A stretch of 28,298 nucleotides of DNA, filler included, from an uncultured virus (IMG/VR IMGVR_UViG_2061766007_001638) (taxonomy: Duplodnaviria > Heunggongvirae > Uroviricota > Caudoviricetes). It is 3 parts of one record of this genome, joined end to end, with 100 filler letters (N's around TTAATTAATTAA, not from the genome) between each part and the next. Parts side by side here need not be neighbours in the genome. Positions count along the whole stretch, not along the records: positions 3,412 to 28,298 come from IMGVR_UViG_2061766007_001638; 2 more parts are not named here. The stretch is one strand, 5' to 3'. The position numbers and the translations under genes are program-made. The notes under the pieces were generated by a model. That model saw only the letters and a list, made by a program, of their open reading frames with translations. It searched no databases and was not told where the DNA came from. Positions 3,042 through 27,078 of the stretch are shown here, in pieces (the stretch's first letter is position 1; every line of letters begins with the position of its first letter).

Positions 3042-3311
3042 ATGAAGAAGATTGTTTTAGCGTTGTGCATGGCGTTTGGACTTGCATTTGCTTCTGGCCC
3101 CGACACCAAAAAGAAAGAAGATACGAAGGAACGTGTCGTCGAGCTGTCCAAAATTGACTGGGCTAACGTTCAGAGGGGAATGGCGGCTTCAAACCGCTAC
3201 CATTTCGTTGAGCAGAACGTGACGTTGGTCATCACGAACAAGGTAGATGATGTTTTCCCGATGACTCTTCCTCCATATAGGCCGATTGGACGGAGCGCGG
3301 AGAGGATAGAG
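3042..3311 (+). CDS. Putative secreted protein, 3'-truncated by the linker
   Basis: Signal-peptide-like MKKIVLALCMAFGLAFA-S; TATAAT at 3030-3035 lies 6 nt before the ATG. Confidence 0.6.
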
Positions 3312-3411
3312 NNNNNNNNNNNNNNNNNNNNNNNNNNNNNNNNNNNNNNNNNNNNTTAATTAATTAANNNNNNNNNNNNNNNNNNNNNNNNNNNNNNNNN
3401 NNNNNNNNNNN
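3312..3411. other. Artificial contig-joining linker
   Basis: 44 N, TTAATTAATTAA (3356-3367), 44 N. Confidence 0.95.
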
Positions 3412-3465
3412 CGATTCCTCTCTCCTCCATCCACCTGTCATATTCATCTTCCCATGTAGAGAAAC

Positions 3466-5168
3466 TCAACTATTCCGTATTTCCTTCCATCCTCGCTCCT
3501 TGTTCCTGGAAATTATACGCCTTATATTGTTCGCGCCAACTGGATTCGCACTATGAATATGTACAGTAACGTTATCGCATCCGCAGAAATCAAGATAATC
3601 GAAGCATCTTACGTAATCCCCTCCCTGAGACTGGTAGTCTCCAGCATCGTGGTCTGTGTCTATGAGTGTTACGTCCGAAAAATCGTTTCTTTCGTGGCAC
3701 CAGTCAATGAAATCGTTCACACTTTTGAACCACTTGAACCCATCTGGGGCTTCCCTTATGTCGTCAATCCATATCTTTATTCCGTTCTCTGGGACTTCGT
3801 CCGACTTCTCTCCGCCGATGTCTTTCTCGGCTTCTTGGATGTTTCCCTCTTCGTCCCTATATATTCCCATGAGCCTGTCGTAGATTTCCTTTAGGTTGTC
3901 GTTTTCTTTCTTGTCATTGACATTGTGGAACGCAAGCCTGACAGTCCATACGTCATCGGCACAATCGTTGCTCCAGTCTATCAGCCATACGTGTCCGAAC
4001 TGTTCAAGAAGCTTTTTCACGAGCTTTTTCACGACAGCCAGATATGTGACAAGCTTTCTTTCGGTTCCAGCTCCGTTGCATCCCCCGAAAACCGTGATTA
4101 TGTAATCGTCATACTCTGTTCTGTGGACAGAACTCAATCTGAGACTGTCTTCCTTGTGCTCTTCGTCTGGGTCGGCCTGACAATCCTTCACAATATCGTT
4201 TACGACGACGAAAATCCAATCACTTGACGGAATGTCCATCCATTTTTCGCCCCACTGGTTCACTGGCTTGTCGTCGTAGTCTGGAATCCAGTCTTCCATA
4301 AGAAGCTTCAGGCTGTTGTGGACGAATTTTCTTGTCTCCTGGATATTTTCTCTTCCATTATCAGTCATTGGGAACTTTTCCTCACTTTTGAACGAACACC
4401 GATACTCTGGCTCGTCATCTTTTTCGTCATCTGCAAGAATCTTCACGTCGCAGACTATTGAATAGTAGTACTTGTCCCCGTCCTTGAGCTTCTTGTCTAT
4501 TCCCTTGGCCCTGAACTGTATTCGTCCTATCCTGTACGCCTCCGAAAGGGTCTTCAATTCCCCGCCGTCCATTGTCTTGAGGCCAAGCGGATTGTATTCT
4601 GGGTCGACTATGTACAGTTCGTCGTCTACCTGGATGTAATAGACTGGCTCGTACTTTGCGGTCTTGTAGTATTCCGCTATCTTCTCCCCGAAACCCTCCA
4701 GCGGAACCTTGTCGGTTATGAACTGGACGTCGTTTTCCGNNNNNNNNNNNNNNNCACGCCTCTATGAGCTCTGTCGACAGGTCTTTCGGGATGTTGATGT
4801 CTTCCGTCTTGAGGTATTCCTTGCAAAATGAAATGAATCTCTAAGAGCCTCTTTCCAGAGCCTCAAGATAAATCTGCGTAAGATGGTCTTCCTCTTCCTT
4901 CGTCGTCGTACATGTCCATTTTCCTTCCTTGTACTTGAATGAAGGTCCTCCTAGGTTCGCGTACTTGTTAAGTTTGACTTCCAGCCATATGTTCTTCTCG
5001 TTTTNNNNNNNNNNNNTAGAACTTCGTGTCCGAGCCTTCATATCTTGAAACCTTTAGGTTTGAAAATGGTTCACCCTGTGATTGCAGAAACTTCTCGAGA
5101 TTGTCCTTTATCTGAACCTCGAATTTGTCCGATTTCGTTTCGGATGTCTTTGTCCCTTCGCCTATCAT
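3466..5168 (-). CDS. PD-(D/E)xK nuclease-like domain fused to a C-terminal cyclic-phosphate-processing receiver (cREC)-like domain
   Basis: MIGEGTK...GSDTKF-gap-IWLEVKLN...LERGS[TAG 4841-4843]RFISF-gap-IAEYYK..YYIQVDD..YNPLGLK, then the supplied 368-aa ORF ending IWIDDIREAP..IDTDHDAG..HIHSANPVGANNI and TGA. GTAAATA at 5177-5183. Confidence 0.65.
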
Positions 5169-5200
5169 AGTATTAATATTTACGTATCCCAAAATTCTTG

Positions 5201-7023
5201 TCATTGGTTTTTGGCAGTGTCTTCTATGCTCTTTGACATTGTCAATTTCTCTTTTTGCGTCTTAAGATACGTTGTTAAGTGCAGCCTTGACGCATCCCTT
5301 ACCGATACAATTNNNNNNNNNNNNNNNNNNNNNNNNNNNNACTCTGCAAAACTCTAAACATTCTTCAATTCAAGAGGATTTCCTTTGTTTTTTGAATTTC
5401 CTCCTATAAAATACACGTCATCGCCAATCTCTATGTATCTACATCCCTTTCTCTTGTAATAGCTGTCTATGCTATCTATAATCTAGTCTTTGAAACTCTT
5501 TCCGTTTTCACTTTCGGAATCCTCAAACGTAAACAACGTGTATTTCTTGTCAGTTTCATCTTGATTTTGTTCTTCGTCTCCGTCCGTATGCGGCTTTTTG
5601 CTGGGAAGGAAATCATCGGTTGAGATGAAAAGTTTGTATATTTCCCTGAATTTTGTAAATTCATCAGAAAACATCATTCTTCCGTCATTTCCGCATAATT
5701 TTTTAAATTTTTCTTTTATTATCTTTGCTATNNNNNNNNNNNNNNNNNNNNNNNNNNNNATATATGTAATTTGATGAAAGAAACATGAATTTTCTAACCC
5801 ACTCCAAAACGAAGAAATTAAAAACTTTAGCTAACTGCTCAAATCCTTCTGGGAAATTCTTTGCCTCTTCTGGGTTGAAATTAAGTTTTTCCTAGACATT
5901 CTCGATTTGATTCAAACTATCTATGCAAAACTATACATTTTCTCCAAGCTGTAAAAACTTGTTCCTTATGGCATCTGATGTTGTCATTATATCAGTTAAC
6001 AATTTATTAAATTTCTTGTCTGTGTATGAAGTTTTCCTGGTATCATTTTCTCTGTAATATGTGTCTCTTACTTTACTGAGTTTCCCGTCTTTGAACATTA
6101 GACTAAACTTAAAATATCCAGCGTCCTCATAATTAAGCTTCACTTCTACGAAGCCAGTCAGCNNNNNNNNNNNNTGTACATAACGTCAGAATCATTAGAG
6201 CCGCCGACCCACGCAGCACCTGGTTCATCTACGTGGTTTTTTGAATCGTTTTTGCCAGTTATGAGCAAATTTAAACCGTCTCTTACGGAAACCTCTTTCT
6301 TTTCCCAGTCTTTTACTGGCTTGGAGTCCCTTGTTTTGATTTTTGAAGTATTTAATATGTCTTCGTTAACGTTTTCTTCTTNNNNNNNNNNNNNNNNNNN
6401 NNNNNNNNNTTTGCACTGTCATCAAACTTGTCACCAGAATTTTCATACGATTTACGTCTGAACTCTACTGCATCCTGAACGTTTAATAACTAGTCCCGTG
6501 TTTCATCTATGTTTATGTCAACACCGTCTTTACCGAAAAACTCGTCTTTATATTTTTTAATCTATTCAATGGTATCTTTTTCGTTATTTTTGATGTTAAT
6601 CGTTTTGTTTATAAGGTTAAAAACTATTTTTCTGTCATTTATCTCATATATTCTATTTTTCAGAAGGTCGTACATCACGGAAAAGAATTCCATATCAGTT
6701 TTCGTAATCATCATCCACGGTTTTCCTNNNNNNNNNNNNNNNNNNNNNNNNNNNNNTTTTTTCCACTTATTGACCATGTTCTGAAAAATGCAGAATTTAT
6801 CTTTTTGAGTTTTGTATTCTTTAAAATCTACTGGAATCTCCGCACTTCCATTATTTTCAAGATTGATTAAACCATACGCACTGGTTTTTCCCAAACGCTT
6901 GAACGTGAATATAAAATCATCTGTATTAAGAACAAACTAATCTTCATCATAAGATTCTTTGTTCTAAGATTCTGATAGTGTTTTTTTGGACCACCCAATG
7001 AAAAACTGTTTGAAATTTTCCAT
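5201..7023 (-). CDS. Large PD-(D/E)xK nuclease-like protein related to the downstream gene; 8 in-frame TAG
   Basis: ATG at 7023 with GAGGTG upstream. TAG at 6964, 6937, 6562, 6490, 5931, 5892, 5483 and 5354. Motifs GGSNDSDV-gap-GFVEVKLN and YYKRKGCRYIEIGDDVY..NPLELK; TGA at 5201-5203. Spans five N gaps. Confidence 0.6.
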
Positions 7024-7038
7024 TTATTAATCTTCACC

Positions 7039-8346
7039 TCATTTTTTCAGAAGATGCAATATTTGATTTATCTGCCCGAACTGTCCGACTATCTTATAGC
7101 ATCTGCCAGTCTTTCCAAGCTTTATGATTACACCTTCGCTTGGGAAGAAATTCTCTTTCCAGTTGTCAAGCTTCTTCATGTTCTTGTTGAACATCTTTAG
7201 TTTTTCCTTGGTGAGCTTTCCGTTGTCCTTCTCTATTTCGCTGATTGCGCTTTCAAGTTCCAATGCAAGCTTCTGGGAGGTCTTAGACGGGTCGGCAGAA
7301 ATGAATCCAGTGACGTTCTTCAAAAGAAGGCTTCCAGCTTTCGACACCAAAGATTCGACTGGACGCATTATCTCCTCGTTCATCTCGTCTTTCTGGGATT
7401 CAAGGGTCTCCATGACTTTTCTGTACTCTTCGGAATGGACGTTCACCCCAGCCCTCTTTGCGAAAGTGCAGATGTCGCTCTTCGTAGGACGCTTCCCACT
7501 CAGATAATTCAGCCTGTCCGCCATCTCCTTCAGGAACTGGCAGTCCTTGTCGACCCCTATTCCGTTATGGTTGCAAACGTTTATGATATAGCGTTTAAGG
7601 CGCTCGTTTGCATAGTCCTGAATGGTCGTATTGAGGGAGAACCCATCTATGAGCTTGTCGAAGTCCTCCATCAGCATCCCGAGGGCTTTCGACGCATTTA
7701 CGCTGTCCTTCATCCTGAGGACGTTCTGCTACGTAATCTCGAACATTTCCTGTTTCAGGGCGTCGTGTCTCTTGAGGGTTTCGTAAAGCCATTTTGAAGA
7801 ATCCCTGTCCTCCGAAATCTTGTTGAACTTATCGTCAAACACGTCTACGCTGTTCAGCTGGAGAAGACACCTGTTTCCGTAATCCAGGATGTTCGCGCAT
7901 GGAGGATACACGATTTCAATGTTCGCGAAATTCTGTCCGTTGTTAAATAATCTCAGCAAATCCTTCTGTTCAATGGACGACAGGGCTTTTTGCAGGCTTT
8001 CTGCGGACGTCACGAACGCTTCCTTGAGCTTTGGGTTTCCGTCAAAGTACTGTCCTAGCTTGGATATGTTCATCGGCTCCTTAAGGGATGCCTTGTTTCT
8101 CGCGAATCCAAAATTTCCATCCTTGAACGTGACCATTATGTTTGCTCCGTCGAGCTTTTCCGTCAGGGTGGTCTTTCCCTGAAACACGTCTTGCAATATC
8201 GAACGCATTTCACCGAAGGTCATTTTTCCGTCTTCGTAAAGATGCATTATCCTCTATGCGGCCCCTCCTTCCAGGATTATCTCTTTGTCAAAAACCTCTT
8301 TAACTATCGCTCCGAGGTCGAGCCTGTCTTCAGGTGTCAGTTTCAT
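7039..8346 (-). CDS. Ligase-like covalent nucleotidyltransferase-fold protein (KxDG motif), 435 aa
   Basis: MKLTPEDR...IILEGGAA[TAG 8254]RIMHLYED..TEKLDGANIMVTFKDG..ARNK..NIEIVY..MFEIT[TAG 7729]QNVLRMKD..SEGVIIK..YKIVGQF, TGA. No N gaps; the two supplied ORFs join in frame. Confidence 0.7.
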
Positions 8347-8407
8347 GCGCTTTTCTTTCCGATAATAAGTATTTCTGGAGTAATTAAAGTAGTACTCCTA
8401 TTAGGGA

Positions 8408-8438
8408 TATTTACCATTATCCCGTATTTCAGTATAAT
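8408..8438. promoter_or_regulatory. Overlapping divergent promoters: late GTAAATA (minus, 8408-8414) and sigma70-like TTTACC-17-TATAAT (plus)
   Basis: -35 TTTACC at 8410-8415, 17-nt spacer, TATAAT at 8433-8438; TATTTAC at 8408-8414. Confidence 0.6.
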
Positions 8439-8462
8439 ATTCTACATAGATAGGTTTTAACG

Positions 8463-9167
8463 ATGAAATTTGCAAACGCAAAATCCAAAAGCACCAAGCA
8501 ATAGAAAAAGGCATAGAAGAAAATGCCATTTGGGGGATAGGGAAGGACCTCGAAGAAAAGGAAGACAGCCGTCGACATGACGGACGAGGAATTAGAGGAG
8601 ATGATGCGAAAGAAAAGGGAAAGGGACGAAAATCCACAGATAAGGGAAAGATATTACGTCACGAACGCGGACCTTCTTAGGGAACTTGAAAAATGGAGGG
8701 ACAGCAACAAGAAGGAAGAGGAGAGAGAAAGGAAAAAATGGGAGAATCTCCCAAAATCCGTAACACAGGGAAAGGAATTCCAAGTCGACTACAACAAAAG
8801 GACCATTTCGGAAGAGCTTGGAAAGATGTTCATGGAACTTGCAAGGAAAATCTCCAACCATTCGTTTTTCAGGAACTATACATTGCAGGACAAATAGGAC
8901 ATGATGGGATACGCATATGAAAAGCTGATTACGGGACTTCCAAACTACAACTTCAAGTACAAAAACGCGTTTGCCTATCTAAGCCAGGTCTGCTTCAACG
9001 CATTCAAGACCACGCTTTCGAAATACTACAAGCAAATAAACATAAGACGCTCACTTACCAAAAAGGCTATTGTCGAACTAAACACATACCTCCCGAACTC
9101 AAGCATATCAAAATGCCTGAATAACCAGTTCGAGGGAAACGACTACGACGATTTCTCGGAGTACTGA
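8463..9167 (+). CDS. gp55: T4 gp55-like late sigma factor with 4 in-frame TAG
   Basis: YYVTNADLLREL..W, ISEELGKMFMELARKIS..FRNYT..DK[TAG 8895]DMMGYA and NAFAYLSQVCFNAF match gp55-family motifs. The in-frame ATG at 8463 adds a basic extension with TAG at 8502, 8514 and 8538; 8577 is an alternative start. Confidence 0.85.
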
Positions 9168-9168
9168 C

Positions 9169-9753
9169 ATGAGCACACAGAAGATAAACGAAGCATTGGG
9201 AATAGAGTCAATCGACTCGTTTCTCTCGTCATTGGACATAGACGACAAGAAAATCGACCAACTGAGCCAGGTGGACGAACAAGTGAGGGGCGACATAGAG
9301 AGAATAGATGCCCAAATGGACAATTACAAGAACGGCGGAATAGAAAAGGTCAACCTGGACGACATTTCCACAAGTCTCGGACACATAAAAGAGCTGGTTG
9401 AAGTCTCAAAAGATACCATAAGATACATATACCAGCAGATAATAGATTCTGAACTTGTCGATTCGGAACTTGTTGGAAGTTTTTCCAAGTTGCTCGAGGC
9501 CGTACATATCCAGATTTCCGAATACATCGGACTTTACAAAGACAGGCAGAATTTCTACTATAAAGTCAAGCTCGAAGCGATAAAACAGCAGAACAAGCTT
9601 GAGCAAATGAGACTGAAACAGGAATTTGACCTCGAGAAAATAGAGAAATCCAAGAAAAACGACGCAGTAACAGTCGACAACATGAAAGTCGCATACAGCC
9701 AGGAAGACTTAATCAAGCAGTTGGACGATGCGGACAATCCTGATTAGAATTGA
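9169..9753 (+). CDS. Helical protein, possibly gp16-like small terminase
   Basis: Reading through TAG 9745 gives ...NPD[TAG]N and TGA at 9751-9753. The helical pattern and C-terminal TVDNMKVAYSQEDLIKQL resemble T4-like TerS only weakly. Confidence 0.4.
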
Positions 9754-10434: not shown

Positions 10435-10465
10435 GTAAATATTTACAGTATTAGATATGTATAAT
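10435..10465. promoter_or_regulatory. Palindromic bidirectional late promoter plus a TATAAT box
   Basis: GTAAATATATTTAC (10435-10448) is a perfect palindrome with GTAAATA on both strands; TATAAT at 10460-10465 on plus. Confidence 0.6.
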
Positions 10466-10475
10466 ATTCTTTGCC

Positions 10476-12077
10476 ATGATTGAATATGACGAGAAGATTG
10501 ATTCGATTTTGCGAGATTGGGTTGAAAAATTTCCACGGTCGTATTTTAANNNNNNNNNNNNNNNNNNNNNNNNNNNNNNNNNNNNNNNNNNNNNNNNNNN
10601 NNNNNNNNNNNNNNNNNNNNNNNNNNNNNNCAAGAATATTCTCGAATATGTCGAAAAATGCACACCTTTATTGAACGACAACAAATATATTATCTCGACA
10701 AAGGTATATTGGGTTCTGAACAAAATTCAAGATTTTCCAAGGTGCAAAATATGTGGAAGCAAATTANNNNNNNNNNNNNNNNNNNNNNNNNNNNNNNNNN
10801 NNNNNNNNNNNNNNNNNNNNNNNNNNNNNNNNNNNNNNNNNNNNNNNNNNNNNNNNNNNNNNNNNNNNNNNNNNNNNNNNNNNNNNAAAAATTGACGAGA
10901 CAAATATCAAGAAATATGGAACAAGGAGATTTACTCAAACAGACAAGTTCAAATCCATCATAATAGAACGAAATTACGATATCGAACAAAAGAAAAGGAA
11001 TACGCATCTTGCAAACAAATCTTACTCTGAATCAAAACCAGANNNNNNNNNNNNNNNNNNNCCAGACTTAATCTGGCATTATACTTCAGACGAATATCCA
11101 TTTGAATGTGACTTTTATTCTCCATCTGACAATATATACATGGAGTATAACGGAACATGGACTCACGGAGAACATCCATTTGATAAAAACAACCAAAATG
11201 ACATAGATAAGGTCAATGAGTGGAAATCGAAGACCGACAAGAATGGTAAAATAAGACCATATTACAAGAACGCGATATATACATGGACCATTCTCGATGT
11301 GAGAAAAAGAGAATGTGCAGTTTCAAACGGTTTAAAACACATCGTATTCTGGAACTTGAACGAGGTATACGAATATGCAATACCAAATTATAATGATATC
11401 CTTCTGGTAAAAGACATAATAATTCCTTTTAGACGAAGCGTAATAGAAAACGAATTCATTTATTATAGAGACACAAAATGTCCAATATTGAATCAATATG
11501 TTTCAACCAGAAACGAGATAGTTAAGTTTTTTCAACAAGATATGTTCTTCAAAGAAGAAAGAAGGATATGGAACAAAGATATTGTCAAACGGAACAAGTT
11601 GATTGAAAACAGGATGAAATATCTTAAAAAGAATGTAAGTGAGCTTACACATTGCGATATTCTCAATGGATTCAAAAGGTCTGGAATATATTATGGATAT
11701 TCACATTTCAATCCTTTGTGGTTCAAGTGGTTCATAGAGAAATATGGAGTAAAAAAATGTTATGACCCGACTGGAGGATGGGGTCACAGGCTTCTTGGTG
11801 GATTAGACTTAGAGAAATACATATACAACGACAAGTCTCAAACTACAAAGAAACATGTAGATGAAATGATAGACTTTTTCAATATAAAAAATACAATTAC
11901 ATATTGTTCTGATGCANNNNNNNNNNNNNNNNNNNNNNNNNNTGTTCACTTGTCCTCCATATTTCAACCTAGAGAAATACGAATGTGGTGATTTCAAGTC
12001 TAGAATTGAATTTGATGAATTTATAGAATGTCTGTTCAATATCTTTAATTTCAAAAATTCGTGTAATATATTCGGAC
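10476..12077 (+). CDS. Zn-ribbon/KYG-repeat Vsr/DUF559-like endonuclease fused to an amino-DNA methyltransferase; 3' end lost in a gap
   Basis: PRCKICG, TNIKKYG, SKP..YPFECDFY..IYMEYNGTWTHG..D..KR; then, with no gap, YDPTGGWGHRLLG (SAM-binding motif I); after a gap, FTCPPYFNLEKY (motif IV). Visibly AT-richer than its neighbours. Confidence 0.75.
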
Positions 12078-12087
12078 NNNNNNNNNN

Positions 12088-13603
12088 CATACCGTTGCTC
12101 CAGCTGTACTGCTGCGTAAGACCATCGACCACGATGTAGTGGTAGTAGTTCTTCGCATCCCACACGCTGTTCATGATGCCGTAACGCGTACGAGCACCGA
12201 TACGAGGCGTGAGGGTGTCGGGGTCCAGGACCTTCTGGAGCTGCACAGGGACGTATGGGCAATAAATTATGCCGTTGTCCGCAGGATGCGCACCCTTGTA
12301 TCCCATGACGATGTAGTCGCCAGCCGCATAGACGTCGCGGACGAGGAGCTGCTGACCATCGTTGATGAGACCAATCTTCGTGAGCGCACCGACGCCGCTG
12401 TCAGGCACGGAAGGAGCGTTCTTGCTGTTCTGGAACGAGACGAACTTCTCGCGGCTCATCTGCTCGAGGAGGGCGCAAACGCGAGGTGACGTAATCACGA
12501 AGTTTGCGTGTCCACGACGAGTGCGGAGAGCAATCTGGTTAGCCTCAATCGTGACCTGAGTGAGGAGCGTCTGGAGACGGCCCATCTGGTCAAGACCATC
12601 TGCGTAAGCAGGATTCCATCCAGAGATGGAGCCTCCGACGATAGCCGTCTTCACCATCTCCGTCACAATCTGACGGTCGATTTCAGCACCAAGCTCGTAG
12701 GTGATGAGGTTCACGAACTCGGACTCAACGTCAAAGTTGTGGATTGCCNNNNNNNNNNNNNNTCTTGGCCTCAACCATCGTCTTGAGGAAGTCGAACGAA
12801 ACCATCGGATAGGAACCGTTGCTGAAGCGTGCATACTCGGAGTTGTATCCGAGAGGTGCACCCTCGCCAGACCAAGGTCCATTTCCGTTGGTTCCGACAT
12901 ACTGCTTCCACGCAGCTGCCTTAGCGCCGTCCTCTGTGAACCAAGGAGCGTTTGTAGAAGAACCATCAGCCTTGGTTCCATTTGCATACGTTCCATTCCA
13001 CGCAGGAGTCTCACCCGTGAGAGATGTGAGTCCACCAGTAAGCTCGTTGCCCGTATAGCGGGTATCGACTGGATTGAATCCGATTTCCTGGTCGTGGATG
13101 TCCAGATGACCCGTTGGGTCTGTGCGGCAGTCACCATANNNNNNNNNNNNNTCGCCATACTTCGCACGATAAGCGAGAGCGTATCCGAGAGGTCCGTTGA
13201 GGGCCTGGACACCAACGAGCTCATGAGCGATGAGGGATGGGAACAGACGACGCACCATAGGCATGATGACGTTCGGGAGGTAGTAATCACCGTAATCGGA
13301 AGCGTTCTTGATGTTCTCGCGTCCGAACTTGCCCTTCAGATATCCCTTAGACGTCTTTCCGTCAATAGGATATGCGTCCTTGCCACCGAGGGGGGACTTT
13401 CCGCCTCCGTAAATCTCACCAGACGTCATGCCCGTGGCTTCCGTCAGGAGACCAGCCTTGGCGAACTCCTTCGCCGTGTTCTCGAGAAGCTGAGAAACGC
13501 TCTTCCTCACCTCGTAGCTGGTAATCTTCTCAGAGCCAGCCTCGACGATGGGAGCCCAACGCTTCATAATCGTCTCGATGTCTTCTTGAATAATCTTTGC
13601 CAT
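12088..13603 (-). CDS. gp23: T4 gp23-like major capsid protein; 3' end in a gap
   Basis: MPMVRRLFPSLIAHELVGVQALNGPLG, VEAK-gap-AIHNFDVESE..AEIDRQI, TRRGHANFVITSP, GYKG..GIIYCPYVP, DPDTLTPRIGARTRYG. Probable LLTE/A processing site; no visible TAG. Confidence 0.95.
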
Positions 13604-13627
13604 TTTTACTTTCCTTTTGTTTATGGC

Positions 13628-14620
13628 TTAGTTTTTTGGGGTTAGGTGGTCAAGGGTGTCAATCCATTGCTGCATGTNNNNNNNNNNNNNNNNNNNNNNN
13701 NNNNNNNNNNNTGGGGTTTCCTCTTCCTCATCTACTGTGGTGGAATTGGAATCTCCTTCCGAGTTTTGCTCTGGTGGATTACTTTCCGTCCCGTTGCCAT
13801 CACCTTCACCTGTCTTTTCGGGGGTTTTCTCTTCATCCTGTTTTTCCTGCATGATGTCGTTAATCGCCTCCTCCAAGTTCTTTTCCTCTTGTATCGAATC
13901 CCTTTCGTCCTCCAGTTTCTGCTGTACGCTTTCCAGTACGGTCTTGTAACTGGACTTCGCGTCCTCGAGAGACATCTTTTCAAGGCGTTTTCTCACCTCT
14001 TTGGATTCGACTATAGGTAAATTCTTAGTTTTTTCGTTTATGAACTCCATTTTCTCGTATTTTTCGCATTTTTCCTGGAGCTTCATGTTATTGTCGATTG
14101 ACTCTTTCAAGATTGTCTGACAGTTCTCAAGCTTTTCTTTCAATTCTACGCTCTCGTTCATGAACTTTGCCTTAATCTCGTCTTTCTCCTTTTCAACCTG
14201 CTTCTGGACCGCGTCGTCGTTGACAAGAAGCATTCCCTTGAGTGATTCTTGAATCTGCTCGAGTTTCTGCATCCTTTCGTAGTCAACNNNNNNNNNNNNN
14301 NNNNNNNNNNNNNNNTGGTCTACGGCTTCCGTCATAAGCTTCTGGGATTTAAGGACGTCAATCTTGTTCGCCTTCTCAAATACCTCTTTCTGATGTGCGG
14401 TTATGCTCTCGAAGACTTCCTTGAACTCCTTTTCCATCTTCTCTTCCACGAGTTTCTTGGTCGCCTTTATCGCGTTGTCCCTCGTCTCGTCGAGCTTGGT
14501 CTGGAAATCAAGCATGAAAGTGTCGAGGCTGTTTTTCTGGGACTCGTTAAGAGTCACCCCGACTTCCTCAAACACCTTGAGGAGTTCATCGTATTTCTTC
14601 TTTAGCGTTTTAAGTGCCAT
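13628..14620 (-). CDS. gp22: gp22-like prohead core/scaffold protein
   Basis: Long E/K-rich coiled coil immediately upstream of the capsid gene, with several LxE/IxE sites (LNES, MTEA, LKES, LEEA) and a C-terminal MQQWIDTL helix; TAA; no visible TAG. Confidence 0.75.
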   Translation of the reverse strand: MALKTLKKKYDELLKVFEEVGVTLNESQKNSLDTFMLDFQTKLDETRDNAIKATKKLVEEKMEKEFKEVFESITAHQKEVFEKANKIDVLKSQKLMTEAVDXXXXXXXXXXVDYERMQKLEQIQESLKGMLLVNDDAVQKQVEKEKDEIKAKFMNESVELKEKLENCQTILKESIDNNMKLQEKCEKYEKMEFINEKTKNLPIVESKEVRKRLEKMSLEDAKSSYKTVLESVQQKLEDERDSIQEEKNLEEAINDIMQEKQDEEKTPEKTGEGDGNGTESNPPEQNSEGDSNSTTVDEEEETPXXXXXXXXXXXXMQQWIDTLDHLTPKN

Positions 14621-14707: not shown

Positions 14708-16591
14708 TCATTGGTTTCCGAAGCCAAACGACGGTTCCTCGCTACTATTTTCCTCTCCAGGGGGTGAATTATCGGCTTTTGGGGGTTCTGGAGCCTCGCC
14801 GTCTCCTTCTCCAGATGGCTCTCCTCCATCTTCTTCTCCTCCGCTTTCCTGACCCTCTTCTTCATTTTCCTTTTCTTCGCCAGAAAGCCTCAGAGGTGAC
14901 TTGAAGTCAAGGGGCTTGTTGTCGTCTCCAATCTTGTCGGCATAATAATCAGCAAGCGCAACAAGCTGCTTCTCTTTTATCAGGTTAAGGAAGTTCTGGT
15001 CTATTTCCTCGTCCGTCATCTTGAGAATCTTCTTCATCGCGTTTATCTTGGAGAGTTCTTCCTGGTCTACAACGGCCTTGTACGTATCCATCATGGCCGT
15101 CACGTGTTTCTGGGTCTGGTACAGGTCATAAAGGATTGGAGTCACGAAATCAACGCTGAAATCCGATTCTTTAAGCTGATATGTCTTCCAGAGTCCTATG
15201 AGCTTCAAATGGGTGATGAAACTTCTCTTTAGACCCATCGACATTCTTCTCTGTATTCTTATGACGCTTCGCGCCATGGAATATTCTTCATATGTTATCG
15301 TATCATCTCTCTCAAGCGAATTCTCTGGAGCCTTGTATCTTGAAAAAGGAACCTTGAACTACTTGAAAAGACGCCTTAAGAAGAATTCGATGTCTGCTAT
15401 CTATTCATAATCTGCGGTTGAACCGACCGATTCCACCGTAGTACCGTCGTTGGCGTTTGTCTTTCCGAAGAAATACGTCTCTAGCATCGAAACTGGGTTG
15501 TATACCTGGGTAATTTCCCGTTCGCTGCTCTGGTTCATCTCTCTGGACGAGATTATCTTCTTCGACTTGAGGTCGTTTATGAACTGCTGTATTTTCTGGC
15601 GTGCGACCTTGTCCGCCATTCCGCCAGTGTTGATGTTGAAGAGAAGTCTTTCTGGAGCCCTAGTAACACGTAGGATTACGGCTGCGTCCTGCATGAGTGC
15701 GAGCTGATGGTATGCCTATTTGCATTTTTCTATGAGAGGAAACACCATCAAACCGTCTGGAGACGTTTCTCCAGATGAAATGTACGTAATCTGTGGCCAC
15801 AGAAGGGGAATCGTGTCGTCCTTGTCGAAATCGACGTTGGACTAGACGGCAATCATGTTGTTGAATATGGACCTCGCCCCTATACAACTGTTCGAGATAA
15901 TGTTCTTCAGGTCCTTGTTCATCTTCTCCTTGTTGAACACTATGCCCATCGAACGTCCAGTCTCTCCGTTCAGAAGGGTTTCATAGTATTCTGTAGGAAG
16001 ATACTTCACCCCTATTATTCCGAGTTCTGGTTTCTGTGGATTGATGATGTTCTCGAATGCAACCTCCCCTTCGACAAGGAGTTTCTTCACCATCCAGAAC
16101 GCATCTTCCTTGAACTTGAACAGGTNNNNNNNNNNNNNNNNNNNNNNNNNNNGGTGCTTCTTGTTCGCTGGAATGTTAAGTTTTATCGTCTGACCAGTCT
16201 CGTCTTCGTGCAGAACGTCATCAGCTATCTCACATAGGCAAAAATCGCACTCCGTGTACATTGCCATGGCCCTGTACTGCCTTATCCTCTCCGACTTGTT
16301 CGTCATCAGTGGAAGTGCAAGAATGCCAGAGAACAATGACTGGAAGTATCTGTCTGGAGACGCAATCTAAGTGTGTGTAGGGAACCTTGAAACAACGGAA
16401 CGCCTGTCTATTATGTCCTATATGTTGTTCTGGGCGTTGTTGAATATCTCTATGTTCGGGTTTTTGCTGATTGCCTCTGGTCCGAACTGCTGATTTCCGA
16501 CGGGGATTTGGTTTTTCTGGACCTAATCCCCGTGGTTTATCTGCCTTTTTCCATTAAGGCTCCTGTATTTCCTGAACAAACCCTCTAACAT
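14708..16591 (-). CDS. gp20: T4 gp20-like portal protein with 7 in-frame TAG
   Basis: RIRQYRAMAMYTECD..EIADD, AYHQLALMQDAAVILRVTRAPERLLFNINTG, SMLETYFF..GTTVESV, IADIEFF..FKVPFSR..ITYEE. TAG at 16523, 16418, 16367, 15842, 15716, 15401 and 15359; TGA at 14708. Confidence 0.93.
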
Positions 16592-17706: not shown

Positions 17707-18634
17707 CCACCTATCACTTTCTGCGTCTCATGAAGAGGAATGGGCTTGAAATTCCCTAGTTTGTCAGACGTCCAACCGTCTTTTTCTTCATCGTAATAAN
17801 NNNNNNNNNNNNNNNNNNNNNNNNNNNNNNNNNNNNNNNNNNNNNNNNNNNNNNNNNNNNNNNNNNNNNNNNNNNNNNNNNNNNNNNNNNNNNNNNNNNN
17901 NNNNNNNNNNNNNNNNNNNNNNNNNNNNNNNNNNNNNNNNNNNNNNNNNNNNNNNNNNNNNNNNNNNNNNNNNNNNNNNNNNNNNNNNNNNNNNNNNNNN
18001 NNNNNNNNNNNNNNNNNNNNNNNNNNNNNNNNNNNNNNNNNNNNNNNNNNNNNNNNNNNNNNNNNNNNNNNNNNNNNNNNNNNNNNNNNNNNNNNNNNNN
18101 NNNNNNNNNNNNNNNNNNNNNNNNNNNNNNNNNNNNNNNNNNNNNNNNNNNNNNNNNNNNNNNNNNNNNNNNNNNNNNNNNNNNNNNNNNNNNNNNNNNN
18201 NNNNNNNNNNNNNNNNNNNNNNNNNNNNNNNNNNNNNNNNNNNNNNNNNNNNNNNNNNNNNNNNNNNNNNNNNNNNNNNNNNNNNNNNNNNNNNNNNNNN
18301 NNNNNNNNNNNNNNNNNNNNNNNNNNNNNNNNNNNNNNNNNNNNNNNNNNNNNNNNNNNNNNNNNNNNNNNNNNNNNNNNNNNNNNNNNNNNNNNNNNNN
18401 NNNNNNNNNNNNNNNNNNNNNNNNNNNNNNNNNNNNNNNNNNNNNNNNNNNNNNNNNNNNNNNNNNNNNNNNNNNNNNNNNNNNNNNNNNNNNNNNNNNN
18501 NNNNNNNNNNNNNNNNNNNNNNNNNNNNNNNNNNNNNNNNNNNNNNNNNNNNNNNNNNNNNNNNNNNNNNNNNNNNNNNNNNNNNNNNNNNNNNNNNNNN
18601 NNNNNNNNNNNNNNNNNNNNNNNNNNNNNNNNNN

Positions 18635-19493: not shown

Positions 19494-22349
19494 TCACAAA
19501 TCATCTACTTCCATGATGTTCATGTTTCTCGGGTCGTGCGTGGGGAATCCAGTGGCCACTAGGAACTTTCTCAGCGTTCCTATTATCAGCTTGTCCCACA
19601 TAGTGTCGTAATCTATCTCGAACAACCCCTCGAACTCCTTCGGATACTGGTCTGGCTTGTATGCCAGGACGTTTATACCGTACTTGTTCGTCGGCTTTAC
19701 GTACAGAAACCTAACCTTGTCACCGACAAGTATCTGGTCATAATATTTCCCGAGTTTCATGTTCTCTAGAATCTGGTTGTAAAACGTGCATGCCTTCGCT
19801 ATTCCGCTTGTCCCCTTCGCCATTTCAAGAAATCCGACGGATTCCTTCTCGGTTCCGTACCCTTTCCAGAACGAAATCTCGTCTATACTCAGCTTTGAGA
19901 ACCTTTCATACGCCTTGCTCAGGTATTTCTTGAAATCCTCAGCGGTCCAGTCGTTTCTCAGTACCCCGCTGTATATGTCCGCCAGGAATTCCTTGACCGT
20001 TAGGGGGATGTTCCCCTTCTTGAGCTCGATTCCAGAGTATTTTATATTGTCCACTATTTCTGGTCCCTCTTCAAGTATCTTCCTAACACCGTAGTGTTTC
20101 TTTGACTCGTATATGCCCGTGTCAGCTATGTATTCAAGGGAATATCTGAGAACTTCTGGATTTTCGCTGTGGTATTTTTCGCGTACCAGGTCCTGCACAA
20201 ACTTGTTAAGGTCGTTCTCGACGAAATCCTCTACGTATTCCCACAACTTGAGTTTCCATTCGTCGCTCCAGTCGAACATCTTCTCTGGAAGGTTGTATGT
20301 CCTTCTGAAATAATCAGTTATGCAGCGAATGGTTATGAACTGACTGTCAGTATCACCGCTCACGACATATAATAGATTCTTTCCATTCTTGTCTACTATA
20401 TCTAATAGGTTAGAAGGAGCCTGTATGGCGAACTTATCTCCAAACCTCTTGTTGAACACGTCTGCGACATGAAGTGCTGCATTGATGTTGCAGAACTTTC
20501 CAGTCCTTGTTATCGTCTGCGCCATGTGGATGTTGTAAAGTGGGCTGTACGGAGTTCCGATTATCCCGTAAATCGAGTTAATCATAATCTTAATTGCCTG
20601 CTGTCTGGCATCAAGGTTCTCGACGAGTTCCTTTACGGAATCTATCTGGTCCTCTGGAACTTGTTTCTTGTAGAGCTTCATTTCAAGCTTCTTCATCTCC
20701 TTCTTCGTGGACTTCCTGAGATTGAAGAAGTGGGCGCACCACTCTGCAACAACACCTTTTTTTAGGCTGTGTTTAAGGAAAAGCGTATTGTTCCTCGTGA
20801 ATATGCATTTTTCGTCTAAGAGCTTCAGAAGCTCTTTCCTGCTTATTGCCTTGTGTTGGTTGTTTGCGGTTAGTATATAGTATTTTTCTATGTTTTCCGA
20901 ATCAAGCTCTATCGGTTTCTCGAATTTGAACCCAACCTGGTCTGGGATTGGCTCCCTTGAAATCTTTCCAACATACGTCTCTGGGGACAGATTGCACGCA
21001 CGGATGCTAGACGGATATAGGCTGTTGAAGTCTACCGTCGCTATTCCGTCCTTGTACAGTCCAGGAATGGGCTCGAACACGAACGCACCCTCGTACTTCT
21101 CATTCTCCTCCCTCTTGGCCTTGTACGAGGTAAAAACTGCTTTTTTCATCTGCGTCCTGGAGAACATCACGAGGGAGCCGACGAGATATCCTATGGACGC
21201 GTAAATCGAATTGTAGTCGCTGAGTCCGAACGACGTAATCATCCTTGCAAGATTAGACATCTTGCATCTTTCCTCTATTTTCCTTGCTAGGTCCACGTCG
21301 CGTACGTTATATTCGTAGAATTTCTGGAAGTCGTTCTCGTACAGGGTCTTCAGGTTTCCNNNNNNNNNNNNNNNNNNACCAACGTTGCTGAGCCCGAACC
21401 CGCCGTCAAGCGGGTTTTTTATCTTGAACTTGTCCCTATAGAGGATGAGCGAATCACAGATGAAAATTCCCTTTATGTCGGCCAGAATCTCCGCCTGCTT
21501 GTTCGCCCTCTCGTTCTGGAGATTGTTCTCCCTTACCCTTACCACTCCGACTGGAGAAAGCCTCTGCGTCACCCTGCTGAGCTTTCCCGTCCCGAGGTTG
21601 TCTGGATTCCCGAGGACGCGTTCAATCCTGTTTACGATGTACGGAACGTCGAAGCTTTGGATGTTCCATCCAGCAATAACGTCTGGCGTGTTCGCCTCGA
21701 ACCAGTCGAGAAAGTGGTTCAACAGGCTCATTTCATGTCCGTTGAACTTGAAAAGGACGAAATCGTCTTTCGGCATGTCCTTGAGAGGTTCGTCCTTGAA
21801 ATCTATTTCACATTCGCCAAGGGACCACGTGTAGTATTTTTTTGTCAGAGAATCGTAAATTGTAATCATATTAATTCGGTTCCTGGCCGTCTTCGGGAAC
21901 TCGAACGGTCCTGACATCTCAGTCTCGATATCGATGTAATGCGTCCTGACTGGCTGCGTGTTGAACCCCTGGTCGAGCGCGCATCCAGCGAACATCTTCT
22001 GAAGAAACTCCTTCTCTGGAGGAAGGCATTCGACTATGTTCAAGGAACCGTTACAGGAATCTACGTACTTCATCCTGTTTTTCGCATTCGAAAACGTCCT
22101 CGTCTCGACGTACCTTCCGTAGATGTCCTTTTCCGACGTTGGATAGTTCACGTTGTACTTTATATGTGAACTGTGAGGGCATATGAACGTCTGCGGATTT
22201 CCGTTCGTGTCGTATCCAAACAGGATAATCTGCCCGTTTCTCTCATGGTCGGTCGTGTAGTGGCACGAACGGTATCCATTTCCTATGTATTTCTTCCACT
22301 CCGACTTAGGGATGTCGGTCAAATCGACTGAATTCTCGAATATATTCAT
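19494..22349 (-). CDS. gp43: Family B DNA polymerase (gp43-like)
   Basis: Exonuclease motifs DIETE, GWNIQSFDVPYI and YNVRDV; polymerase motifs DFNSLYPS, KIMINSIYG, SGDTDS and KKHY. TATAAT at 22390-22395; no visible TAG. Confidence 0.97.
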   Translation of the reverse strand: MNIFENSVDLTDIPKSEWKKYIGNGYRSCHYTTDHERNGQIILFGYDTNGNPQTFICPHSSHIKYNVNYPTSEKDIYGRYVETRTFSNAKNRMKYVDSCNGSLNIVECLPPEKEFLQKMFAGCALDQGFNTQPVRTHYIDIETEMSGPFEFPKTARNRINMITIYDSLTKKYYTWSLGECEIDFKDEPLKDMPKDDFVLFKFNGHEMSLLNHFLDWFEANTPDVIAGWNIQSFDVPYIVNRIERVLGNPDNLGTGKLSRVTQRLSPVGVVRVRENNLQNERANKQAEILADIKGIFICDSLILYRDKFKIKNPLDGGFGLSNVGXXXXXXGNLKTLYENDFQKFYEYNVRDVDLARKIEERCKMSNLARMITSFGLSDYNSIYASIGYLVGSLVMFSRTQMKKAVFTSYKAKREENEKYEGAFVFEPIPGLYKDGIATVDFNSLYPSSIRACNLSPETYVGKISREPIPDQVGFKFEKPIELDSENIEKYYILTANNQHKAISRKELLKLLDEKCIFTRNNTLFLKHSLKKGVVAEWCAHFFNLRKSTKKEMKKLEMKLYKKQVPEDQIDSVKELVENLDARQQAIKIMINSIYGIIGTPYSPLYNIHMAQTITRTGKFCNINAALHVADVFNKRFGDKFAIQAPSNLLDIVDKNGKNLLYVVSGDTDSQFITIRCITDYFRRTYNLPEKMFDWSDEWKLKLWEYVEDFVENDLNKFVQDLVREKYHSENPEVLRYSLEYIADTGIYESKKHYGVRKILEEGPEIVDNIKYSGIELKKGNIPLTVKEFLADIYSGVLRNDWTAEDFKKYLSKAYERFSKLSIDEISFWKGYGTEKESVGFLEMAKGTSGIAKACTFYNQILENMKLGKYYDQILVGDKVRFLYVKPTNKYGINVLAYKPDQYPKEFEGLFEIDYDTMWDKLIIGTLRKFLVATGFPTHDPRNMNIMEVDDL

Positions 22350-22396
22350 TTTTATTGGTTTTAAAGTCGTCCTTGATGACTGTGTCTATATTATAC

Positions 22397-23699: not shown

Positions 23700-24521
23700 T
23701 TATTCTTCCAGTTCCTGTGATTCTGAGCCCTGGAGGTCCATTAGCTTGGACTGGATGAGCTTGTTTCTCATATTGTCAAATTCAACCTGGCCAGCCAGGT
23801 CGTTTATCTGCTCGTCAACTTTTTCCTGGGCTTCCTCGCTCGACGCCATGAGTTGCTTTGTCTTTAAGTCGACTAGCTTGCAGAAATCTGAGCTCTTTAT
23901 CCCAGATGGGTTCGTGGATTTGTCGAACTGTAGTTCCTGTGGGACCGAAGACTCGAAAATCGTGGTTTTTATGGCCTCGTTGTTCTTCTCGACCTCCTCC
24001 TTCAGGCTCTTTCCCCTTTCGAATATGTCCTTGACGTCGTTTTCTATGTTCTCGTTCTCAAATGCGGTCTCGGAGTCCGAAAGCTTGACGTAATCGAACA
24101 CGATTCCGTATTTCTTGAACTCTTTCTCTATTTCGTGGTTGCCGATATACTCCATCAGCTTTACTATAGGGGCTATCTTCTGACAAAGCTTCTGGATTTT
24201 CGTAAGTTCCCCGTCCTCTAGGATTTCTGGTGCCAGGAGGGTGCAGATTTGCCTGTAGACCTGCGATGTCTCCTTCTTGAACTCCTTTATCTTGTTCGTC
24301 TCGTCGTCGGTTCTGTCCTTTTTCTTCTTGTCGAGGATTGACTGGATGTCGCGTCTCGTTACGAGCATTATCTCGTAGAACCTGGAGTAGTTGTCCTTAT
24401 TCCTGGATTTTACCGAAGTGAGATTCTCCTTCTTGANNNNNNNNNNNNNNNNNNNNNNTTTCTCGAACTCGTCTCCCTTGATGAGGGTTGTCTTGTCTGT
24501 CTGGTTTTCCATAGTGTTCAT
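23700..24521 (-). CDS. Hypothetical helical early protein
   Basis: 273-aa ORF ending in TAA, with TATAAT at 24522-24527; the true start may be 24512. No TAG. Confidence 0.7.
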   Translation of the reverse strand: MNTMENQTDKTTLIKGDEFEKXXXXXXXXKKENLTSVKSRNKDNYSRFYEIMLVTRRDIQSILDKKKKDRTDDETNKIKEFKKETSQVYRQICTLLAPEILEDGELTKIQKLCQKIAPIVKLMEYIGNHEIEKEFKKYGIVFDYVKLSDSETAFENENIENDVKDIFERGKSLKEEVEKNNEAIKTTIFESSVPQELQFDKSTNPSGIKSSDFCKLVDLKTKQLMASSEEAQEKVDEQINDLAGQVEFDNMRNKLIQSKLMDLQGSESQELEE

Positions 24522-24534
24522 ATTATACAGAAGG

Positions 24535-26373: not shown

Positions 26374-26625
26374 TCAACAAGTAATGCGCCAAGGTCCGTA
26401 CATGCTCGGAATCGCACACCAACACGCACCACTCTTGTTGTTCGGGCCTCCTGGCCTGTTTGGGCATGTCGCACAGATGTCCTTTCCTCCAACCCATCCG
26501 TTATCATTGACGTGTTGTCTGTTGAACGGGTCTGAGGAGTTTGACCTCTGGTAGTTGAAATCGTCTTCGTCTTCTATTGTTATGGTTATCTTTTTCATTT
26601 CAGAACAAATCTCATTTATGCTCAT
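26374..26625 (-). CDS. Small Cys-rich hypothetical protein
   Basis: CATCPNRPGGPNNKSGACWC motif; ATG to TGA. Confidence 0.6.
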   Translation of the reverse strand: MSINEICSEMKKITITIEDEDDFNYQRSNSSDPFNRQHVNDNGWVGGKDICATCPNRPGGPNNKSGACWCAIPSMYGPWRITC

Positions 26626-26633
26626 CGCACCAA

Positions 26634-27078
26634 TCAGGAAAGAGCCTTTCCAAGAATCTGAGAGACGAGTTTTCTATCCAAGCCAGGTACATTTGGAAGA
26701 GCTTTCATGAACGCTCCCATGTTCTTTTTGAGCGGCTCGATTCCACTTTCGGATAAAAGTTTTTCTACTATGGCCTTCGTCTNNNNNNNNNNNNNNNNNN
26801 NNNNNNNNNNGCTCATCCATCTCCTTTTTTGCAAGGTCTTCCCTTCTAGCGGAAGAAAACTGGGAAATCGAGTCCTTGTGGGTCTTCATGGACTTCTCGA
26901 GGACCTTTGTGCAAACTGCATCGGTTATCTCCCTCTGTGGATTTGCGTTTACGGTCAGGTTCTTTATCTCCGACACTATTGTTCTGAGGCAATCTCTCGT
27001 CGTCTGGTCCTTCGAAACCATCGCAAGCTTTATGCTTGACTGTATCCTGTCGTAAATCTCAGAAATTAATTTTTCCAT
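26634..27078 (-). CDS. yqeY: Stand-alone GatB/YqeY domain protein
   Basis: IKLAMVSKD...LRTIVSEIKN, VLEKSMK.HKDSISQFSSARREDLAKKE-gap-KAIVEKLL.ESG....KNMGAFMK..DRKLVSQIL; the frame changes only at the N gap. Confidence 0.88.

Follow-up and report, generated by a model that had tools for sequence, protein, structure and literature searches.

In-frame TAG codons in a predicted gp55-type late sigma factor gene may place late transcription of recoded T4-like phages downstream of the code change

The window, that is the whole stretch of uncultured phage DNA analyzed here (28,298 nt including filler, with 40 masked runs and 2064 N in total), is assigned by its reading frames to a T4-like phage in which TAG is read as glutamine. 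The portal protein gene (PHROG 213, E 8.6e-60) is whole only when TAG is translated as Gln, and seven such codons are found in it. The DNA polymerase is about 27% identical to those of cultured T4-like phages, and a blastn search with positions 7039-9753 against cultured and deposited phages gave no nucleotide match. The gene of interest, here termed gp55, is preceded by a divergent ligase-like gene and followed directly by a conserved gene (Table 1). Under translation table 11 the gp55 frame breaks into 8577-8897 (106 amino acids) and 8901-9167 (88 amino acids); with TAG as Gln it forms a single ORF of 234 codons with neither TAA nor TGA inside. Annotators should be aware that table 11 splits or truncates gp55 in such phages. 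A PHROG scan of the ligase-like frame gave no match; the K-x-D-G motif seen in it is typical of nucleotidyl-transferase ligases.

Table 1. Positions of gp55, its neighbors, promoter-like boxes and comparator genes in the window
Feature	Position	Strand	Remark
Ligase-like gene	7039-8346	-	435 codons; K-x-D-G motif by eye; 1-2 TAGs; behind GTAAATA
GTAAATA box, candidate late-type promoter toward the divergent ligase-like gene	about 8408..8414	-	Motif scan
Sigma-70-type promoter-like site TTTACC-17-TATAAT	8410..8438	+	Consensus scan, 10/12 matches
Enriched box GTATAATA ahead of gp55	8432-8439	+	
gp55-type late sigma factor gene (predicted)	8463..9167	+	234 codons with TAG as Gln; stop TGA
N-terminal K/Q-rich basic extension, residues 1-56	8463..8630	+	Holds 3/4 TAGs
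In-frame TAG, codon 14	8502..8504	+	Identical in run X3 contig
In-frame TAG, codon 18	8514..8516	+	Identical in run X3 contig
In-frame TAG, codon 26	8538..8540	+	Identical in run X3 contig
Internal ATG (Met39), possible core start free of leader TAGs	8577..8579	+	In most of the closest clade, not in L008
In-frame TAG, codon 145, conserved core	8895..8897	+	Aligned with a Gln of T4 gp55
Conserved gene directly 3′ of gp55	9169..9753	+	TGAcATG junction; TAG at codon 193
Portal protein gene, comparator	14708..16591	-	7 TAG/34 Gln codons
Family-B DNA polymerase gene, comparator	19494..22349	-	PHROG 262; 951 codons; 0 TAG/24 Gln codons
GTATAATA ahead of the DNA polymerase gene	22389-22396		Box scan

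By homology, the product of 8463..9167 is predicted to be a late sigma factor of the T4 gp55 type. PHROG 234 matched residues 61-205 (E 1.4e-21), and tblastn hit 1251 phage records, all at <60% identity; among the matches listed, most were annotated as late sigma factor. A family profile built from 28 members matched T4 gp55 in the late-transcription complex (PDB 7d7c, chain F) with E 6.7e-22, T4 residues 7-122 corresponding to profile positions 59-169. No Pfam model reached its cut-off in a scan of gp55. Since T4 residue 7 aligns at profile position 59, the first ~55 residues represent an extension that T4 gp55 does not have. PFGG and LTLAEKQEIKLK-type segments of this extension are kept across clades, non-recoded relatives included, and we regard it as real coding sequence on the grounds of such conservation. 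The acidic-aromatic C-terminal tail (…GNDYDDFSEY-type) is conserved in the closest clade and in L011.

All four gp55 TAGs lie in the frame of ATG 8463, as originally predicted. According to the part of PMC2988020 available to us, residues 44-123 of T4 gp55 comprise the RNAP-core and DNA-binding sites, and T4 without gene 55 shows no late-gene transcription. TAG 8895 falls inside the segment aligned to these residues; therefore, a product truncated there should be inactive. The claim that a start at ATG 8577 would not spare this half of the protein held as well, the same TAG cutting after residue 144 and ahead of the NYNF..NAFAY..FNAF block. Its alignment column is occupied by Gln (CAA/CAG) in 10 recoded relatives, by Glu in 20, and by Gln in T4 gp55; gp55 TAG columns hold Gln encoded by CAA/CAG in relatives and Gln in T4. 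Assembly errors do not explain the gp55 TAGs. Run X3, which belongs to another study, contains a 336-base contig without a single difference from the window over 8500-8835, so the three leader TAGs are present there too, and none of the differences listed for a ~90% identical contig of run X4 within 8463-8585 (29 substitutions and two indels in 123 bases) falls on these three codons. Run X1, in which a longer contig contains the whole stretch, may be its source, so it provides no independent support for the TAGs; among the runs listed for the stretch, none was of RNA. As read from the frame, full-length gp55 cannot be obtained without TAG read-through.

Promoter classes are treated here as sequence motifs alone. 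On this basis, gp55 indeed stands behind a host-type TATAAT box (8433-8438, 24 nt ahead of its ATG), as had been proposed. The longer box GTATAATA was found in six copies in the window versus 0.33 expected, a number reached in 0/100 shuffles; it precedes gp55 and the genes for DNA polymerase, dUTPase and the product of the gene at 24521, and is also found at 10459 and 1570. In 22 of 39 loci, four of the five non-recoded relatives among them, the 90 nt that precede gp55 contain an exact TATAAT. The second box, GTAAATA, occurs 10 times in the window (2.5 expected) and precedes the ligase-like, scaffold-like, 17365 and 26357 genes. In the related records G001-G003, 63 of 92 GTAAATA copies lie ≤150 nt ahead of a gene start, and the genes fronted by them mostly contain TAG in G001 and G002, not in G003. 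The minus-strand copy next to gp55 shares bases with the −35-like hexamer of the promoter that faces gp55. Upstream of gp55 itself, GTAAATA is found in several clades as well, and part of gp55 transcription may therefore be late. The overlapping or adjacent boxes at gp55 suggest a possible interplay of late and early polymerase. Many relatives have a ATATTTAC element upstream of gp55, and others a palindromic GTAAATATTTAC between TATAAT and the gp55 ATG. Elsewhere in the window, TTGACT-17-TATAAT (1104-1141) is only 6 nt ahead of ATG 1139 and a TATAAT adjoins ATG 24521 (24519-24528); judged from this spacing, both genes may be read from leaderless mRNAs.

The gene adjoining gp55 downstream had the same arrangement in every case seen, in four phages. 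In the gene at 9169..9753, TAG 9745 is the second-last codon, and the final Asn behind it is conserved in a relative, which argues for read-through. The copies in the four phages are 33-66% identical (the window; L007, 3595-4167; L004, 4458-5111; L071, 16611-17273, minus strand). The PHROG scan of the window copy was empty, and nothing in the PDB was matched at E <0.03; from its position we consider the gene a candidate late-transcription partner.

Homologous loci were collected by pattern scans (2 viral, 44 metagenome and 13 viral-contig loci). Duplicates or identical copies (L001-L003, L009, L023, L035) were dropped from the counts, and loci with no or nearly no in-frame TAG in the neighboring genes (L004, L031-L034, L044) were set aside as non-recoded; the 5′-cut loci L043, L044, L047 and L048 and locus L046, which gave no match to the boundary motif, fell outside the full-length set. 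Starts of gp55 were curated by eye, the more downstream ATG being taken in doubtful cases. Among the 33 full-length gp55 genes in recoded contexts, 32 had at least one in-frame TAG (n = 1 to 8 per relative). All 32 had a TAG in the N-terminal extension, 18 of them also in the core, and in most clades there is no ATG between the gp55 TAGs and the core. A TAG-free gp55 in recoded relatives had been named as evidence that would count against the original prediction; it was found in a single case (1/33), L010, where 5 of the 12 neighboring genes contain TAG, 12 codons in total. In non-recoded relatives gp55 was TAG-free throughout, the lone TAG five codons from the end of L004 gp55 being probably its stop codon.

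The TAG share of Gln codons amounted to 0.356 in the gp55 extension (69/194), 0.129 in the core (27/209) and 0.153 in 233 neighboring genes (404/2636), corresponding to an odds ratio of 3.05 for extension versus neighbors (p = 4e-11 in a naive test uncorrected for relatedness). A TAG cluster at the N-terminus that is special to gp55 was rejected: other TAG-containing genes of three related contigs showed the same 5′ bias, with 117/329 = 0.356 in the first 60 codons and 0.198 in the rest, a control that may be inflated by over-long start calls. Across all TAG-containing genes of G001-G003, TAGs lean to the 5′ ends (mean relative position 0.44 versus 0.50), and this lean may in part be an artefact of the same kind. 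With regard to individual genomes, the gp55 share was 0.47 in G002 (12 of 60 genes higher, genome mean 0.25), 0.12 in G003 (19 of 101 higher, mean 0.06) and 0.11 in G001 (42 of 68 higher, mean 0.17). The TAG rate of the neighbors predicts 5.7 TAG-free gp55 genes in 33 (P(≤1) = 0.013, independence assumed); at the rates of TAG-using genes (0.20-0.36), a single one in 33 is the chance expectation. The TAG density of gp55 is that of an ordinary TAG-using gene.

In the alignment, TAG occupied 30 different columns of the extension and 15 of the core. TAG exchanged with CAA/CAG within each of five clades, and just one all-Gln column was TAG in every member of its clade. Positional conservation of the gp55 TAG sites was rejected on account of this exchange. 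In recoded gp55, the presence of TAG is constant, the sites are not. The original prediction had regarded the TAGs as placed in the late regulator to serve as a checkpoint; with an ordinary TAG share and sites that exchange with CAA/CAG, this placement was not borne out.

The window comprises genes of two classes. Six other genes behind TATAAT (polymerase, dUTPase, nuclease-MTase, orf24521, orf1139 and, for its N part, the MFS gene) contained 0 TAG in 62 Gln codons versus 4/12 in gp55 (Fisher p = 4.3e-4), in line with the absence of TAG from these genes that had been noted originally; N masks blur where the nuclease-MTase and MFS genes begin. The dUTPase and major-head-protein frames likewise had no in-frame TAG. 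Early genes that carry TAG at rates similar to gp55, which would have weakened the idea, were not the rule: the DNA polymerase gene was TAG-free in four of five related phage records and had one TAG in the fifth. For the 92-kb record G002, 25 of 98 frames were dropped as probably spurious (D+E+K <15%); of the 60 genes with ≥5 Gln codons, 30 were TAG-free and 20 had TAG in ≥40% of their Gln codons. PHROG scans of 39 TAG-free and 31 TAG-containing frames, three locus-border-crossing frames being left out, assigned to the TAG-free class both DNA polymerase pieces, the clamp loader, dUTPase, dCMP deaminase, thymidylate synthase and kinase, a sigma-70-family factor and an IF3-like factor. The TAG class included portal (13 TAGs), large terminase (13), head-tail adaptor (5), tail fibre (11), gp55 (8/17 Gln codons), glycosyltransferases and transposases. 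In G001-G003 and the window taken together, 13 of 15 GTATAAT-fronted genes except gp55 were TAG-free versus 22 of 59 GTAAATA-fronted ones (p = 0.001); a 470-aa gene behind GTATAAT in G001 carries seven TAGs. The TAG-free sigma-70-family factor of G002 (PHROG 351; L070, 1375-2142), a possible middle-stage sigma ahead of gp55 in the cascade, and the IF3-like translation initiation factor (PHROG 9787; L073, 9063-9677) are encoded at separate loci.

Searches for tRNA genes gave none in the window and none in the incomplete relatives G001-G003. The complete relatives G004 (414 kb) and G005 (418 kb) had 20 and 33 tRNA matches, respectively. ARAGORN revealed no CUA anticodon in G004 and one tRNA(CUA) in G005; this gene lies outside the main array, with a GTATAAT box ~35 nt ahead of it. 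Two odd tRNA matches in G004 and G005 were rejected as suppressors because their anticodon loops appeared CAT-like or CGT-like by eye. The release-factor domain PF00472 was present in 0 of the 5 related records, none of which yielded a release-factor gene. The phage of the window presumably has a suppressor tRNA of its own. In both complete relatives a tmRNA gene lies inside the tRNA array (L098, 2595-2927, tag GNDYRMAA, in G004; L103, 1667-2002, tag GNDYSMAA, in G005).

From the observed identity of the gene, its TAGs, the two gene classes and their recurrence in relatives, we infer the temporal order of events, the suppressor as the limiting factor, and whatever benefit the phage may draw. 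The preferred reading, which we consider probable (roughly 0.6), is that the suppressor comes first and that late transcription is placed downstream of the code change via the TAG-bearing gp55. Unless UAG is decoded as glutamine, the gp55 mRNA could not be read to its end. Replication and nucleotide-metabolism genes would be kept TAG-free because they need translation by the unmodified host, and TAG would be tolerated in a second class of genes comprising portal, terminase, tail parts and gp55. With gp55 in the TAG-permitting class, full-length sigma would build up only once suppression works, presumably by a phage tRNA(CUA) expressed from an early TATAAT-type promoter, and late transcription would thus follow the code change. 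With four TAGs, the sigma yield would scale with approximately the fourth power of read-through efficiency, giving a delay and a sharp onset. There is good support for gp55 being dependent on suppression, and the data are consistent with this dependency having arisen simply because gp55 is not needed early.

A more far-reaching version, in which the TAG leader of gp55 has been selected as an ultrasensitive sensor for the level of suppressor tRNA and times the whole late programme including TAG-free capsid genes, appears doubtful to us. The original prediction had likened the arrangement to a translational AND-gate, and two of its elements stand, the requirement of read-through for full-length gp55 and the avoidance of TAG in replication and nucleotide-metabolism genes, and the placement as a checkpoint is hypothetical. 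If such a sensor existed, its yield with n TAGs (1 to 8 in the relatives) would scale with read-through raised to the power n, the late-type box before gp55 would add positive feedback in some clades, and TAG-rich late mRNAs would never be made before they are readable.

We consider it rather unlikely, and clearly less probable than the preferred reading, that there is no gating at all, suppression being already efficient when the gp55 mRNA appears, for example in the middle stage or by way of a late-type box that gp55 itself possesses, and the TAGs being neutral synonyms of CAA/CAG. The free turnover of TAG positions, a TAG density typical of the TAG-using class, the GTAAATA boxes preceding gp55 in several clades and the TAG-free gp55 of L010 all agree with neutrality, as do the many TAG columns with K, E or R in other members, since single-base drift is expected in a loosely constrained charged segment. 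However, in the clade of the window the gp55 strand bears only the TATAAT-type box common to TAG-free early genes, and the sole suppressor tRNA found, that of G005, is located behind the same GTATAAT box type; therefore, the tRNA and the gp55 mRNA would start together. Moreover, even under drift the dependency holds whenever suppression is incomplete.

Two further explanations dispense with the dependency or with the code switch. A TAG-independent sigma could be made from Met39 (ATG 8577), the leader TAGs merely closing a short upstream frame. T4 gp55 has no such extension, most of the closest clade retains Met39, which is also the called start of several database homologues (P0006-P0010), and the cores of L005 and L006 are TAG-free. 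Nevertheless, TAG 8895 still interrupts the core in the window, the extension is conserved as protein in non-recoded relatives too, and L008 and all other clades do not have Met39, so their start must lie upstream of the TAGs; we regard this explanation as very improbable. Scarcely credible is a host that itself reads TAG as sense, with no code switch during infection, although no suppressor tRNA was found in the window or in the incomplete G001-G003, nor a tRNA(CUA) in the complete G004. Half of the genes are strictly without TAG (30/60 in G002; 0/62 Gln codons in early-type genes of the window), for which there would be no reason if the host decoded TAG, and G005 encodes a tRNA(CUA) of its own.

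The preferred reading, late transcription downstream of the code change, may be compared with known systems. With T4 (gp55, PDB 7d7c/7d7d chain F; PHROG 234), the phage of the window shares homology over the RNAP-core/DNA-binding segment of gp55 and its small size, a T4-type family-B polymerase, and, as a candidate counterpart of the single −10-like box of late promoters, the short A/T-rich motif GTAAATA enriched ahead of genes. The hydrophobic/acidic C-terminal tail of T4 gp55 binds the sliding clamp, according to the accessible text of PMC2988020; the tail of the window gp55 is also conserved and acidic-aromatic, and clamp binding is putative. T4 gp55 works with gp33 and the gp45 sliding clamp, whereas here the clamp loader alone was seen, in G002, and no homologue of gp33 was identified. 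Further differences are the ~55-residue basic K/Q-rich N-terminal extension with in-frame TAGs and an identity of the window gp55 to those of cultured T4-like phages of about 25-35%.

According to the current view, a change of code lets recoded phages set the timing of their late and lytic functions, and a tie to the transcriptional cascade is now proposed. In the part of the preprint of Borges et al. available to us, recoding is proposed as a regulator of late and lytic genes; lysis and structural genes are recoded, and integrases avoid the recoded stop codon. Our data resemble that account in the standard-code-compatible early genes, the TAGs in structural genes and the proposed order of suppressor tRNA first and recoded genes later; they differ in that the late-class transcriptional master regulator is itself recoded, which would couple the cascade of transcription to the switch in translation. 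Neither 'sigma' nor 'gp55' occurs in the accessible preprint text, and 'sigma' is absent from the accessible text of the theta-ribozyme paper and of the 2026 jumbo-phage survey; the accessible text of the Lak megaphage paper uses it once, within a list of translation-related factors. Among the papers listed by a literature search, no title or abstract connected stop-codon recoding with gp55 or with a late sigma factor. The code-15 phages of the phAss-1 study (PMC10607447), as far as its text was available, were rejected as relatives, being siphoviruses and unrelated.

A late sigma factor that needs the new code would be a simple wiring, from code change via sigma to late transcription, and would account for the holding back of TAG-free late genes such as those for capsid and scaffold. 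In Streptomyces, the bldA tRNA-Leu(UUA) controls regulator genes that contain TTA, and the limiting role of the tRNA has been demonstrated there. By analogy, both systems would have a master regulator that is translatable only when a particular tRNA is available. They differ in that bldA concerns a rare sense codon in a bacterium and the phage a reassigned stop codon, without homology; the limiting tRNA is demonstrated in Streptomyces and presumed for the window phage.

Several further features of the window and its relatives were observed. Only residues 182-373 of the minus-strand frame 11809-13290 match the major head protein (PHROG 138, profile positions 215-406), and the remainder looks like noncoding sequence; this frame and the plus-strand frame 12701-14020 are open on opposite strands at a GC content of ~0.5. 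The major head protein gene may be split by an intron or other insert, or its frame may be lost at masks. Long antisense frames are also present in the counterpart region of G002 (38.4-42.5 kb). Under table 11, the MFS-like frame ends at TAG 17756-17758, where read-through would add 14 codons, and the GatB/YqeY-like frame ends at TAG 26674-26676, where read-through would fuse it to the next frame (26374-26625). The DNA polymerase gene of two relatives (L071 of G002, 3202-8429; G003, 141018-146491) is split by an insert with an HNH/homing endonuclease (PHROG 3339, one TAG); unlike in these relatives, it forms one frame of 951 codons in the window.
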